From sequence record PQ529420: 64,000 nt of DNA; one strand, written 5' to 3'. Both the position numbers and the translations under genes were made by a program. The notes beneath the pieces are model-generated. The model was not told the origin of the DNA and made no database searches. It was given only the letters and a program-made list of their open reading frames with translations. Source of the DNA: Escherichia phage Eryne. Positions 66 through 5,527 of this stretch are shown here, piece by piece (within the stretch, counting starts at the first letter, position 1; every line of letters starts with the position of its first letter).

Positions 66-87
66 GGCGGTGGAATAGCCCACCGCC
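66..87 (+). promoter_or_regulatory. 5'-leader palindromic hairpin, variant form (GGCGGTGG-loop-CCACCGCC)
   Basis: inverted repeat between a TTGACA-type promoter at the window start and the RBS of ORF 111..281. Confidence 0.5.
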
Positions 88-110
88 TAACAAAGAGAAG
101 AGGAAACATC

Positions 111-281
111 ATGATCACTTTCGCTACCCGTGAAGCCGCTCGCAACGTTGCACGTAAAGTTAACGCCGCCAACCTGGGCGCTACGCTTAAAGCCCCGGTA
201 AAAGATGAATCAGGTAAATGGATCTTCCCTGGTCTGCGTCACGCTGATAAGCTGGGAACGTTAACGCTAAAAAATAAATAA
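111..281 (+). CDS. hypothetical small protein (56 aa)
   Basis: ATG at 111 with AAGAGGAAA RBS; in frame with track ORF 27..281, which begins at TTG. Confidence 0.5.
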   Translation: MITFATREAARNVARKVNAANLGATLKAPVKDESGKWIFPGLRHADKLGTLTLKNK

Positions 282-288
282 AATCCGC

Positions 289-317
289 TTGACAGTAGCA
301 TCATTTATAAGTAAAGT
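289..317 (+). promoter_or_regulatory. sigma70-like promoter
   Basis: -35 TTGACA, 17-nt spacer, -10 TAAAGT. Confidence 0.5.
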
Positions 318-326
318 AACAACAAC

Positions 327-347
327 GGCGGGAAATGGTTTCCCGCC
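327..347 (+). promoter_or_regulatory. 5'-leader palindromic hairpin GGCGGGAAA-TGG-TTTCCCGCC
   Basis: perfect 9-bp inverted repeat between promoter and RBS of ORF 368. Confidence 0.6.
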
Positions 348-367
348 ATCAATAAAGAGATAAGATC

Positions 368-727
368 ATGAAATCAGTAAAAGCAATTAAAACTTACATT
401 GTGTCGGCTATTTCTTTTGATGGTACTACAACCGAAAAAGAAAAGATCACCGAACTGATGCGCCGTTTTAACTCTGAATACTGGTATCCCGATAATCAAA
501 AACGTTACAATTATAACGTGATCAAGGCGATAGCCTCATGGTTACAAGGTTTACCGTCAGACATTAACATCGCCTTTGATTATAACGAGATTGATCATTT
601 ATTAATTGAATGGAAGTACATAAAAGAAACAAGCAAAGAAACAACCGTTACCCGTGAGCGGGAAAATTATTGGTTATATATTGCAAGCATGATCGTAATC
701 CTGGCAAAACAGCATAACGTGGCGTAA
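368..727 (+). CDS. hypothetical protein (119 aa)
   Basis: track ORF; RBS AAAGAG upstream of ATG; no recognisable domain. Confidence 0.55.
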   Translation: MKSVKAIKTYIVSAISFDGTTTEKEKITELMRRFNSEYWYPDNQKRYNYNVIKAIASWLQGLPSDINIAFDYNEIDHLLIEWKYIKETSKETTVTRERENYWLYIASMIVILAKQHNVA

Positions 728-742
728 TTAAGAGGAAGAAAC

Positions 743-880
743 ATGAACGCATCACAGCAGATCGAAAAATTCAACCGCAGCAAGGCGCGTAAAGATTGGA
801 ACGAAGAGATCACCAAAAAAGGCGACAAGCGGAACAAAACAAAGAGAGATCGCAGCACAAAAAGATACTGGAACGAATAA
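743..880 (+). CDS. hypothetical small basic protein (45 aa, Lys/Arg-rich)
   Basis: ATG at 743 with AAGAGGAAG RBS; below the 60-aa track cut-off; followed by terminator. Confidence 0.45.
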   Translation: MNASQQIEKFNRSKARKDWNEEITKKGDKRNKTKRDRSTKRYWNE

Positions 881-887
881 CAAAAAA

Positions 888-918
888 GGGCGCAATAAGC
901 GCCCTTTTAGCTTATATA
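888..918 (+). terminator. rho-independent terminator
   Basis: GGGCGC-aata-aGCGCCC hairpin followed by TTTT. Confidence 0.6.
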
Positions 919-999
919 GAGGCTTGTTACCCATAGGCAATGGTAACGCCAGGATAAGCCTATAAATCAACGTTAGACGGCTTTACAGGAGCTTTAAAA

Positions 1000-1182
1000 A
1001 TGAAATTAGACGAAATAAGCAAGGCACTAGCCCAGGGGCAAAGGTTATGCGCCCGATATCGTGATCAATATGGCTTCATAACTAGCGGCGTGATCCTGGG
1101 GATTGAAGGCAATAAGATTTTTATTGACACGTTGAAAAACGTTGTATATAGTGACAATATAATCTCAATAAAACATATATGA
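1000..1182 (+). CDS. hypothetical protein (60 aa)
   Basis: track ORF; RBS CAGGAG upstream. Confidence 0.5.
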   Translation: MKLDEISKALAQGQRLCARYRDQYGFITSGVILGIEGNKIFIDTLKNVVYSDNIISIKHI

Positions 1183-1190
1183 GGCAAGAA

Positions 1191-1592
1191 ATGAAAAAAT
1201 TATTGATCGCTGGTTTAATCTCTTTTGGCATGGTTGGAACATCTAGCGCGGCGATATCCTCCACAGTAGCAGAATTAAGCGCCGTTGATGCAATGGAAAA
1301 CGTCATGCTTATTAATAATGCGATCCCCGATGAAATCATGGAGGATTCACACATGATCGCTTATGGTGCTGTTACACAACTAACGGCAAAAATAGATAAA
1401 TCTATTGTTAACGGCTTAAATGAAGATGTGCCATGTGAAATTATTACCAGTGTGCTGACTACTCAAAATTTTACGCCGTGGTTAAAAAGTATTCAAAAAG
1501 TACACAGTACAGCCGCAGATCGTAGCAATGAAAAACTAGTGTCAGCACTTGCAACGTATACCCTAGCAAAATGCACCGAGATAAAAGATTGA
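1191..1592 (+). CDS. hypothetical secreted protein (N-terminal signal peptide)
   Basis: start moved to MKKLLIAGLISFGMVGTSSA; hydrophobic h-region then Ala-rich cleavage-like site. Confidence 0.5.
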   Translation: MKKLLIAGLISFGMVGTSSAAISSTVAELSAVDAMENVMLINNAIPDEIMEDSHMIAYGAVTQLTAKIDKSIVNGLNEDVPCEIITSVLTTQNFTPWLKSIQKVHSTAADRSNEKLVSALATYTLAKCTEIKD

Positions 1593-1639
1593 CAACATAG
1601 AAAGCACGTTATAAGATACACACAACAAAGGAGAACTAC

Positions 1640-3848: not shown

Positions 3849-3872
3849 GGGCGGGGCAATAAGGCAACGCCC
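3849..3872 (+). promoter_or_regulatory. leader hairpin variant (GGGCG...CGCCC, imperfect)
   Basis: GC-rich inverted repeat between promoter and RBS of ORF 3891. Confidence 0.4.
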
Positions 3873-3890
3873 ATTAATGAGGGTAGAATC

Positions 3891-3995
3891 ATGTTAGAGA
3901 AAATTTTCACGGTTGTAATAGTTGGCCTGGCGTTATCGGTTGGATTGGTTGCAACTATGGCTAACATGATCCTATCTTCCCACGGTATTGGATAA
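3891..3995 (+). CDS. small membrane peptide (34 aa)
   Basis: ATG with GAGGGTAGAA RBS; MLEKIFTVVIVGLALSVGLVATMANMILSSHGIG; not in track. Confidence 0.4.
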   Translation: MLEKIFTVVIVGLALSVGLVATMANMILSSHGIG

Positions 3996-4005
3996 GGTGA
4001 ATCAA

Positions 4006-4221
4006 ATGATCACGAATAAGACAGGTAAAACAGAATTTTTACGCGGCTTGCAAATAGGTAAACCTGAGATCTGGCATTGCACTAAATCCGCGCATAATGA
4101 AATGAAAGATTTTACCGCTACTTTACAACGTGTTAAAATATCTATCACGCAGAAAAAAGCCTTGTTAGTAGTAGAAAACGAGATACCGCAAACCATTATT
4201 ATTGTCGAGCGTACAGCATGA
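4006..4221 (+). CDS. hypothetical protein (71 aa)
   Basis: track ORF 3988..4221 with start moved to ATG behind AAGGTG RBS. Confidence 0.45.
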   Translation: MITNKTGKTEFLRGLQIGKPEIWHCTKSAHNEMKDFTATLQRVKISITQKKALLVVENEIPQTIIIVERTA

Positions 4222-4604
4222 AAACTGAAATCATTATTGAAATCATCAACGGTTATAAAGAAGCCTTTATTTTTGCTGAATCAGCCAGGGATCATGAAGG
4301 CTATTTTATTGATAACTTAGACGATTATGATTTTTCAGATCAAGCCCATCAGCGGATCATTCATGACGTAGCGGCTTATTGTGATGCCAATGATGCTGCT
4401 ATCTCTGAGGCAATGAGCGACGGCGCTACAGCAAACCAGATCGGGAATGATTTACATTTTACCCGTAACGGTCACGGCGTAGGCTTTTGGGATCGCCCTG
4501 AAATATACACTACTAACACCGCCAACCGCCTAACAAATGCAGCTAAATTAATGCCATCGGTGCATGCTTACATTGGTGAAGATAATTTGATTTATATTGA
4601 ATAA
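4218..4604 (+). CDS. hypothetical acidic protein (128 aa)
   Basis: track ORF; ATGA overlap with previous stop. Confidence 0.55.
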   Translation: MKTEIIIEIINGYKEAFIFAESARDHEGYFIDNLDDYDFSDQAHQRIIHDVAAYCDANDAAISEAMSDGATANQIGNDLHFTRNGHGVGFWDRPEIYTTNTANRLTNAAKLMPSVHAYIGEDNLIYIE

Positions 4605-4610
4605 AAAGTA

Positions 4611-4638
4611 TTGACACCGATCCCCCATATGGTATTAT
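4611..4638 (+). promoter_or_regulatory. sigma70-like promoter
   Basis: -35 TTGACA, 16-nt spacer, -10 TATTAT. Confidence 0.5.
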
Positions 4639-4648
4639 TTACCACGTA

Positions 4649-4669
4649 GGCGGGAAATGGTTTCCCGCC
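4649..4669 (+). promoter_or_regulatory. 5'-leader palindromic hairpin GGCGGGAAA-TGG-TTTCCCGCC
   Basis: perfect inverted repeat between promoter and RBS of ORF 4693. Confidence 0.6.
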
Positions 4670-4692
4670 AGGTAATCAAAAAGGTAAATACT

Positions 4693-5082
4693 ATGCGCAA
4701 CCTGGTTTCTGTTTCTAACGTTGAAAAATTCCAATCTTTACAGGGTATCGTTAACAACGTAGCGCCTTTTTTAGTCAATGGCTTGATTGCAAAGATGAAA
4801 AATAAACATCATGCGGCATGGTCTGCTTACTGCTTTGATAATGATGAAAAAGCGGCTAAAATGATGTTAAATATGCTGTTAGACAGTGTAGAATCATCTT
4901 TACCGGAAAACATCGCAGAAGAGATCACCTATCGTTATAAGATGGCGATCACTTACCAGGAGGTTGCGCAATTTAATATGATGGATGATGACGAACAACA
5001 GGATCAGGAAATGTTCTGGGAGTATGCAGATCGTCAATCGGCTTTTGATGAAAAGTTAGCGATGTATTATAACGAATATTAA
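4693..5082 (+). CDS. hypothetical acidic protein (129 aa)
   Basis: track ORF 4657..5082 with start moved to ATG (MRNLVSV) downstream of hairpin and AAAAGG RBS. Confidence 0.55.
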   Translation: MRNLVSVSNVEKFQSLQGIVNNVAPFLVNGLIAKMKNKHHAAWSAYCFDNDEKAAKMMLNMLLDSVESSLPENIAEEITYRYKMAITYQEVAQFNMMDDDEQQDQEMFWEYADRQSAFDEKLAMYYNEY

Positions 5083-5098
5083 TACACGGTAAAAGAAA

Positions 5099-5122
5099 GG
5101 GGCGCACTAAGCGCCCTTTTTT
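5099..5122 (+). terminator. rho-independent terminator
   Basis: GGGGCGC-actaa-GCGCCC hairpin followed by TTTTTT. Confidence 0.65.
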
Positions 5123-5466
5123 GTATTCTTTTTCACAATGGAAGCGACACGTAAAGAATAGGCGTAAAGGTGGCGTAAAACCATCTAAAACCGACTGTAA
5201 CCGCTTAAACAAGGTAGGAATGATTAATCACCTTACCAGGATGAAAAAGCTGTTATAAAGCTATCTAGAGCGTTTAAAGCACATAGGAAATAATTTGCTT
5301 TTTATCTTGCCTTTTATCCTGCTTTTGATTATTATTATGGAACGGGCGGCACCTGGGGACAGGGGAAGATAATCACCGGAAGATCCCGCTATATATTAAT
5401 AGCTAATACCTATCAAACAACAAAACATCAAAGGAATAAACTATCAAATCTTTACAATCCTACCTA

Positions 5467-5495
5467 TTGACACAGGATCACCCTTATACTAATAT
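5467..5495 (+). promoter_or_regulatory. sigma70-like promoter
   Basis: -35 TTGACA, 17-nt spacer, -10 TAATAT. Confidence 0.5.
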
Positions 5496-5506
5496 GTATC
5501 CCGTAG

Positions 5507-5527
5507 GGCGGGAAATGGTTTCCCGCT
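5507..5527 (+). promoter_or_regulatory. 5'-leader palindromic hairpin GGCGGGAAA-TGG-TTTCCCGC
   Basis: inverted repeat between promoter and RBS of ORF 5546. Confidence 0.6.

Follow-up and report, generated by a model that had tools for sequence, protein, structure and literature searches.

The best-described counterparts of the element considered here are the promoter-early stem-loop (PeSL) cassettes of the T4-like phages RB49/phi1, PST/T4 and nt-1/KVP40 (Arbiol et al. 2010, PMC2839356; Comeau et al. 2014, PMC4122927). A PeSL consists of an AT-rich tract, a near-consensus sigma-70 promoter, a stem-loop formed by a G-run and a C-run with G:T pairs, and a Shine-Dalgarno (SD) sequence followed by ATG. 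The stem-loop lies mostly between or over the promoter hexamers in RB49/phi1 (PMC2839356) and just upstream of the promoter in PST and nt-1 (PMC4122927), and it has been interpreted and tested as a terminator (PMC2839356, PMC4122927). A second group of relevance is that of the ompA/papA-type 5' stabilizers (Emory, Bouvet, Arnold, Bricker and Belasco, cited in PMC3997798), whose known mechanism is to block RppH and 5'-end-dependent RNase E. Here we describe a hairpin cassette that is repeated near the start of a 64,000-nucleotide (nt) stretch of Escherichia phage Eryne (PQ529420; the whole stretch is referred to as the window), and whose stem-loop is predicted to form the 5' end of the cassette's own mRNA. 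The element, from a phi92-like phage, is a variant, in another phage lineage, of a type of mobile regulatory cassette that is already known.

Nine copies of the hairpin, all on the + strand, were found by pattern matching, a covariance model and direct reading, at each of the sites given in an earlier note on this sequence. The canonical 21-mer, GGCGGGAAATGGTTTCCCGCC, occurs exactly at 327-347 and 4649-4669 (none expected from shuffles) and with one mismatch at 3004-3024 and 5507-5527 (none in shuffles), and the pattern GGCGG-N(5-16)-CCGCC adds the copies at 66-87 and 3225-3245, with 0.04 matches expected. The variants at 2637-2657, 3574-3593 and 3849-3872 were read directly from the sequence; the covariance model retrieves the first two and misses the third, which is too diverged. 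The earlier note had described a perfect palindrome, shared by all copies as one 21-mer or a close variant. In fact the 21-mer is a 9-bp inverted repeat flanking a non-palindromic 3-nt loop, and the description as a shared sequence holds for the four canonical copies. The other five have different stems, loops and lengths (GGCGGTGG/CCACCGCC; GGCGGCA/TGCCGC; GGCGGGGGA/TTCCCCGCC; GCGGGGAAA/TTTCCCCGC; and GGGCG..CGCCC with an internal loop), and they retain pairing despite these changes. An alignment of the nine copies made with MAFFT was out of structural register, and the covariance model was seeded instead with a gap-free alignment of six canonical copies and run with filters off over the 64-kb window. 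Its matches are confined to 58-5535, and the clustering is therefore real. Searches of Rfam gave no match to any hairpin in window 1-6200 up to E=5.

The hairpins are one component of a larger arrangement (Table 1). Eight of the nine begin 9-12 nt after the -10 hexamer of a promoter of the form TTGACA/TTGCAA-16/17-TAnnnT, which bears out the proposed promoter context except that the first promoter has TTGCAA rather than TTGACA. The copy at 3225 lies directly 3' of a stop codon, and promoter scans find no promoter-like site upstream of it, in agreement with the claim that one copy stands between two open reading frames (ORFs) with no promoter of its own. From the end of the hairpin to the ATG of the small ORF that follows is 18-23 nt in all nine copies, and this interval contains an A/C-rich spacer and a ribosome site of the AAGAG/GAGG type. 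TTGACA is the -35 in 36 of 38 unique cassettes; the hexamers are 16-17 nt apart and the -10 is TAnnnT. Positions -10 to -5 relative to the -35 form an A-run, worth about 1 bit of information each. Conservation extends to the leader that joins the -10 to the stem (consensus GTATCAC-R-TAG) but not to the 16-17-nt inter-hexamer spacer, which argues that the repeats are kept element by element and are not recent duplicates.

The parallels with PeSLs are extensive. The promoters are near-consensus for sigma-70 and have an AT-rich tract upstream of the -35; the stems are of the GGCGG..CCGCC type, several of them with G:U pairs, and fold with free energies (dG) from -12.7 to -16.1 kcal/mol; and, as in the T4-like phages, the cassettes cluster among small ORFs of unknown function. 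Both kinds of cassette also sit at insertion, deletion and replacement junctions between close relatives, a likeness that at this locus is confounded with intergenic position. One difference is lineage, since PeSLs belong to T4-like phages and the cassettes described here to the Stephanstirmvirinae (and Vequintavirinae). The other is placement. PeSL stem-loops mostly lie upstream of, within or over the promoter and were interpreted as terminators or attenuators of upstream transcription, whereas the stem here starts 9-12 nt after the -10, uniformly past that hexamer, with no U-tract, and would form the 5' end of the mRNA that the cassette itself makes. Comparable stem placement is found only in the rarest PeSL subclass, "downstream of the -10" (PMC2839356). 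The earlier note took the motif to be unknown from characterized phage regulons, which needs qualifying. The architecture does match published PeSLs (PMC2839356, PMC4122927), and so does their part in recombination, which the note left unconsidered, but no description of these cassettes was found in the literature on phi92-, phAPEC8- and rV5-like phages, and the rV5 genome paper gives generic promoter and terminator lists and nothing more specific (PMC3606486).

Additional evidence comes from the phage EduardKellenberger, an rV5-like Vequintavirus. In the equivalent region of its genome, sigma-70-type promoters are followed by hairpins at the same 9-12 nt offset, while the leaders are unrelated to those of the family and the stems largely so (GGGGCAA-GACG-TTGCCCC, GGGGA-GCTAA-TCCCC, GGGGG-CGG-CCCCC and GGGAA-AAC-TTCCCC). 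Of 89 promoter-like sites at five loci, 51 have a hairpin that begins 5-15 nt past the -10, most often (32 of 51) at 10-11 nt. The stems come in more than 12 distinct kinds, each of them self-complementary. In the alignment derived from the model, 93% of cells are in pairs and 8 of 10 pairs have changed at both positions, a level of pairing that was reached by 0 of 500 shuffles and by no slid register. The script statistics include EduardKellenberger; ESCO13, Citrobacter phage Tr1 and Shigella phage SF1-1 are outside them, although the model search did extend to ESCO13. The EduardKellenberger locus (L005) also has a second repeated cassette, TTTTTAGATGGCCTTGACTCCAGGGCCATCAATAAAGTAAACT, in at least three copies (2340-2385, 2960-3003 and 6700-6745). 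The stem of this cassette (GATGGCC...GGCCATC) surrounds the -35 hexamer TTGACT, and it resembles the classical PeSL subclass with a stem-loop over the -35.

The lac operator O1 overlaps the transcription start and is centred near +11. The earlier note had suggested a shared operator for a dimeric repressor, and the element resembles lac O1 as an inverted repeat of about 21 bp just downstream of a sigma-70 start site, here a predicted one. A dimeric repressor of phage or host, bound to the palindrome at about +4 to +24, would overlap the region just past the start site, where bound operators can block RNA polymerase, and would shut off the early promoters jointly; the GCGG/CCGC core is also common to most Stephanstirmvirinae copies. 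However, operators of the lac O1 type keep one sequence and a fixed half-site spacing, whereas here both vary and self-complementarity is kept. The distance from the conserved GCGG to the CCGC block is 8-13 nt and the total length 13-24 nt, so there is no single conserved recognition sequence with fixed half-site spacing. The inner half-sites also differ from copy to copy (GAAA, CA, GAA, TGG, GGGA) but always match their own partner arm, the rV5-like relative has unrelated stems at the same position, and one copy stands between two ORFs with no promoter to regulate. The varied self-complementary stems, the variable spacing and the unrelated hairpins at the same offset point to selection for a fold at the 5' end of a transcript rather than for an operator. 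The operator model is therefore rejected, and we regard it as extremely unlikely.

The stem-loop might instead attenuate transcription: by damping read-through from promoters further upstream, it would keep expression from building up along the array. This model has a precedent in RB49/phi1, where a PeSL stem-loop cut lacZ expression like a strong terminator (PMC2839356), and it agrees with the database record of the closely related Escherichia phage Paula (LR865361; Stephanstirmvirinae, Justusliebigvirus), in which the cassette hairpins are tagged "terminator". Paula is 99.7% identical to window 1-6000 over its reverse strand at 35130-29131. The Paula labels (PAULA_TERMINATOR_010, 012, 013 and 016-018) are, however, mostly on the strand opposite to the genes. 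In a terminator scan of the + strand, none of the nine copies passes, as no U-tract follows; two copies pass on the - strand only, owing to the A-rich leader. The Paula labels are thus probably an artefact of an automated predictor of hairpins plus T-runs that reads the A-rich leader in reverse. True terminators are present at about 884-908 and at 5094-5122, of which the + strand scan calls only 5094-5122. An intrinsic terminator was rejected on the + strand because no T-run follows any copy. Moreover, a hairpin placed after its own promoter would stop the very transcript it belongs to. Attenuation is accordingly a highly unlikely function for the stem-loop.

Transcription from sigma-70 promoters starts 7-8 nt after the -10, at a purine preceded by a pyrimidine. 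On this geometry the predicted start is the R of CAC-R-TAG, and the transcript would open with R-U-A and continue into the stem. The predicted start thus lies 2-4 nt before the stem, most likely leaving three unpaired nucleotides. The predicted leaders fold into a single dominant 5' hairpin with the free energies given above. Compared with dinucleotide shuffles, the z-scores are -3.5 to -4.8. The fold leaves 2-4 nt free at the 5' end, and most of the SD region is unpaired as well. The alternative raised in the earlier note, an RNA hairpin used for stability or translational control, fares better than the operator, being supported by position, fold and an open SD; that the hairpin is transcribed, and that it affects stability, we infer. 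The case for RNA is made by the position of the hairpin relative to the predicted start. In E. coli mRNAs, 5' secondary structure is stabilizing, since a single-stranded 5' end is required by both RppH and RNase E (PMC3997798). The two enzymes need at least 2 unpaired nt there and prefer at least 3, and a pyrimidine at nt 2 is unfavourable for RppH (PMC8833179). In the conserved leader, R-U-A, U is at +2. The predicted combination of about three unpaired nucleotides, U at +2 and a strong stem fits a role in 5' protection, if only at the borderline. The predicted arrangement is also similar to the ompA/papA stabilizers, in which a stable hairpin a few nt from the 5' end is followed by an accessible ribosome site (PMC3997798). 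Those stabilizers are, however, found on single genes with mapped 5' ends and measured half-lives, whereas the element here is a multi-copy repeat with a predicted start and about three unpaired nucleotides.

Lambda boxB is a hairpin with a conserved loop that is read by N; it has a boxA partner and occurs twice per genome. The cassette hairpin is similarly a short hairpin in an early transcript downstream of early promoters, which raises the possibility that a phage protein reads the leader and stem and times translation or decay, or modifies RNA polymerase in boxB/N-like antitermination. A site of this kind would be present on every early transcript, and the leader R-U-A-G and the GGCGG base of the stem are conserved beyond what pairing needs. 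In contrast to boxB, the loops are variable (UGG, AUAG, AUGG, UAG, GUGG, UGU, CAC, AAC and ACAAG), about 16 copies are present with no boxA-like motif seen, and Rfam has no match. The unrelated stems of the rV5-like phage favour a generic physical role instead. We consider a protein-binding hairpin quite unlikely. The same grade applies to a broader form of the idea, in which leader plus stem (R-U-A-GGCGG...) is a recognition tag for a phage factor, be it an RNA-binding protein or a structure-specific nuclease or recombinase. If the factor were an RNA-binding protein, early phage mRNAs would be spared or timed while host mRNA is degraded; if it were a nuclease or recombinase, promoter-hairpin-ORF units could truly move between Stephanstirmvirinae and Vequintavirinae that infect the same cell. 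An RNase III site was ruled out, as 8-10 bp of stem is not long enough for one.

The cassettes also coincide with sites of genetic exchange. Homology between the window and the phages phi92 and tuntematon is mosaic, and relatives share 12-74% of the 6-kb stretch in 2-6 pieces. A hybrid cassette of phi92 (L003 9533) is identical to the window cassette at 2964 up to ATAGGGCGG and to the one at 3536 from GGGCGGCAATAG on. The crossover falls in TAGGGCGG, inside the 5' arm of the hairpin, and the two ORFs at window 3047-3534 are missing there. Likewise, the hairpin-plus-gene module behind the promoter of the cassette at 4611 is a different one in each of the window, phi92 and tuntematon. Cassettes cover 17% of the region and contain 20 of the 34 homology breakpoints (binomial p ~5e-8), an enrichment confounded with intergenic position. 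These data, together with the PeSL-mediated excision circles shown in RB49/phi1 (PMC2839356), are what would be expected of a recombination device, in which the repeat, perhaps as a DNA hairpin or cruciform targeted by a nuclease or recombinase, is selected for mobilizing single-gene modules and any RNA role is secondary. Homology alone, however, demands no self-complementarity, and recombination needs no fixed offset from the -10, yet the offset persists between unrelated sequences. With 9 bp of stem and a 3-nt loop, the element would also make a poor cruciform, and selection for future recombination explains conserved pairing weakly. A primary role in recombination is thus unlikely.

We lean slightly towards reading the element as a PeSL-like early expression cassette in which a 5' stem-loop protects and insulates the mRNA and the repeats drive gene shuffling, with both the start site and the RNA function inferred. 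In this model, the cassette runs from an A-rich tract through the -35 (TTGACA), the -10 (TAnnnT) and a short leader (..CAC-R-TAG) to the G-rich/C-rich stem-loop, and continues with an unstructured A/C-rich spacer, the SD and the ATG of a small, function-unknown and presumably early gene. Host sigma-70 RNA polymerase would start at the purine 2-4 nt ahead of the stem, such that a stable hairpin of 8-10 bp would open every monocistronic early mRNA. The 5'-terminal hairpin would make the 5' end less accessible to RppH and RNase E. It would also stop the leader from base-pairing with the ribosome site, and any ORF placed behind it would be expressed durably and at a uniformly high level. As a compatible second benefit, the ribosome site would be insulated from whatever sequence varies upstream or in the coding region. 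As the comparison of relatives shows, the roughly 16 near-identical cassettes in about 9.3 kb also act as homology patches at which single-gene modules have been exchanged, gained or lost, as described for the PeSLs of T4-like phages. The promoterless copy at 3225, which is preceded by AAUUAAUAA, might by way of speculation play the same role after processing of a bicistronic transcript. A model match in tuntematon (L006 10904-10937) falls inside a stretch that aligns to window 2667-3271, the region of the promoterless copy.

Several observations weigh against this protective 5' stem-loop. The pair counts come from a structure-fitted alignment that includes minus-strand rows. Strand-specific evidence from wobble pairs is weak: unique stems contain 13 G:U and 5 A:C pairs, of which only about 5 and 2 are independent events within the family, and a recurrent variant with an internal C:A mismatch (Table 1) would pair better on the opposite strand, as G:U. 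The G:U versus A:C asymmetry was considered as proof of RNA over DNA and set aside: its direction fits, but the events are too few and the C:A variant contradicts it. Three unpaired nucleotides are borderline for RppH and RNase E (PMC8833179), so that protection could be only partial. No transcriptome or start-site map was found in the literature on phi92, rV5, PVP-SE1, Phapecoctavirus and Vequintavirus. The breakpoint enrichment is difficult to interpret since the cassettes are essentially the sole intergenic DNA here. Lastly, the nearby promoters at 1124 and 1589 have no hairpin. The leaders at these two sites (window 1124-1200 and 1589-1642) are short, about 17 nt at 1589; a bound ribosome would cover the 5' end of such a leader, which would fit the logic of 5' protection, although there are exceptions such as L006 7282 in tuntematon.

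Table 1. Cassettes and related features. Positions are those of the window unless a relative's locus (L) is named; model scores are from the covariance model, and dG is in kcal/mol.
Feature	Positions	Strand	-35	-10	Hairpin	ATG	Hairpin sequence and remarks
Cassette 1	27..113	+	TTGCAA 27-32	TAAACT 49-54	66-87	111	GGCGGTGG-AATAGC-CCACCGCC; model match 58-95, 14.5 bits; dG -16.1, z -4.8
Cassette 2	289..370	+	TTGACA 289-294	TAAAGT 312-317	327-347	368	canonical 21-mer; 48.1 bits
Cassette 3	2596..2680	+	2596-2601	TATATT 2619-2624	2637-2657	2678	GCGGGGAAA-TGG-TTTCCCCGC; 41.4 bits
Cassette 4	2964..3049	+	2964-2969	TAAAGT 2987-2992	3003-3025	3047	GGGCGGGAAA-TGG-TTTCCCGCTC, one G:U; 45.3 bits
Promoterless copy	3218..3267	+			3225-3245	3265	GGCGGGGGA-GTA-TTCCCCGCC, one G:U; 39.2 bits; stop codon 3215-3217, then AU-rich linker
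Cassette 6	3536..3617	+	3536-3541	TAGAAT 3558-3563	3574-3593	3615 (corrected start)	GGGCGGCA-ATAG-TGCCGCTC; 14.9 bits
Cassette 7	3811..3893	+	3811-3816	TAAAGT 3833-3838	3849-3872 (diverged)	3891	outer stem GGGCG..CGCCC with internal loop; dG -13.4, z -3.8
Cassette 8	4611..4695	+	4611-4616	TATTAT 4633-4638	4649-4669	4693	canonical 21-mer
Cassette 9	5467..5548	+	5467-5472	TAATAT 5490-5495	5506-5528	5546	GGGCGGGAAA-TGG-TTTCCCGCTT, outer pairs G:U; 43 bits
Degenerate tenth cassette	5782..5857	+	TTGCTT (17-nt spacer)	TATAGT		5855	leader CGTAGGGC; without stem-loop or 3' arm
C:A variant	L006 10650, 4900; L008 2427, 4167, 5691						GGCGGCGGA-ATGG-TCCACCGCC; internal C:A

The cassettes are widespread among relatives of Eryne. 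A 92-nt cassette query matched 130 phage records, nearly all of them Stephanstirmvirinae, and many phi92-like phages are 94-98% identical to window 1-6000 in a piecewise manner. The homologous regions of phi92, ESCO13, tuntematon and nepoznato contain 15-20 cassettes apiece, and Paula has seven further cassettes in the 3.7 kb upstream of the part that corresponds to the window, which brings the array to about 16 per 9.3 kb. The small ORFs behind the cassettes are unrelated to one another. Ten of the downstream proteins were checked; they belong to distinct PHROGs, every one of function unknown, or to no PHROG, and hypothetical proteins are the sole gene annotation of this region in the Paula record. 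Nineteen records in the series MG0656xx, named "Campylobacter phage" and listing C. jejuni hosts, are about 96% identical to this coliphage region, which suggests that coliphage genomes in that deposit may be mislabelled or contaminating.

Some further features of the window were noted. Between the terminator at 5094-5122 and the promoter at 5467 is a gap of about 340 nt (window 5123-5466) with no annotated gene. A 30-nt motif inside this gap, CACCTGGGGACAGGGGAAGATAATCACCGG (window 5350-5379), is kept in the Vequintavirus locus (L005 9966-9995), where inverted look-alikes of it occur at about 590-640 and 720-770. The motif could be a small RNA or a protein-binding site. A likeness of CACATAGGG to T7-type promoters was limited to ATAGGG and was dropped. 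On the - strand, the sigma-70-like promoters at window 47274, 43736, 41538, 30444 and 22525 have unrelated GC-rich hairpins directly after them, at an offset of about 0-20 nt. Several of these hairpins carry T-runs, for example GCCCACCTACTTAGTTAGGTGGGCTTTT, and the sites look like overlapping composites of terminator and promoter rather than members of the early family.

Collections for E. coli phage therapy make wide use of phages of the phi92-, phAPEC8- and rV5-like groups, whose early regions are almost wholly unannotated. With the cassette as a guide, early transcription units and gene starts can be located in these genomes by a simple rule, and recognizing it corrects database labels in which the hairpins now stand as "terminator", on the wrong strand. 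The cassettes also explain swaps of single accessory genes, and they extend the PeSL idea of modular shuffling beyond the T4-like phages. As compact and naturally tuned expression parts, they are available for engineering. If the hairpin does stabilize the mRNA, these phages would offer a genome-wide, multi-copy natural case of 5'-end protection in a virulent phage.

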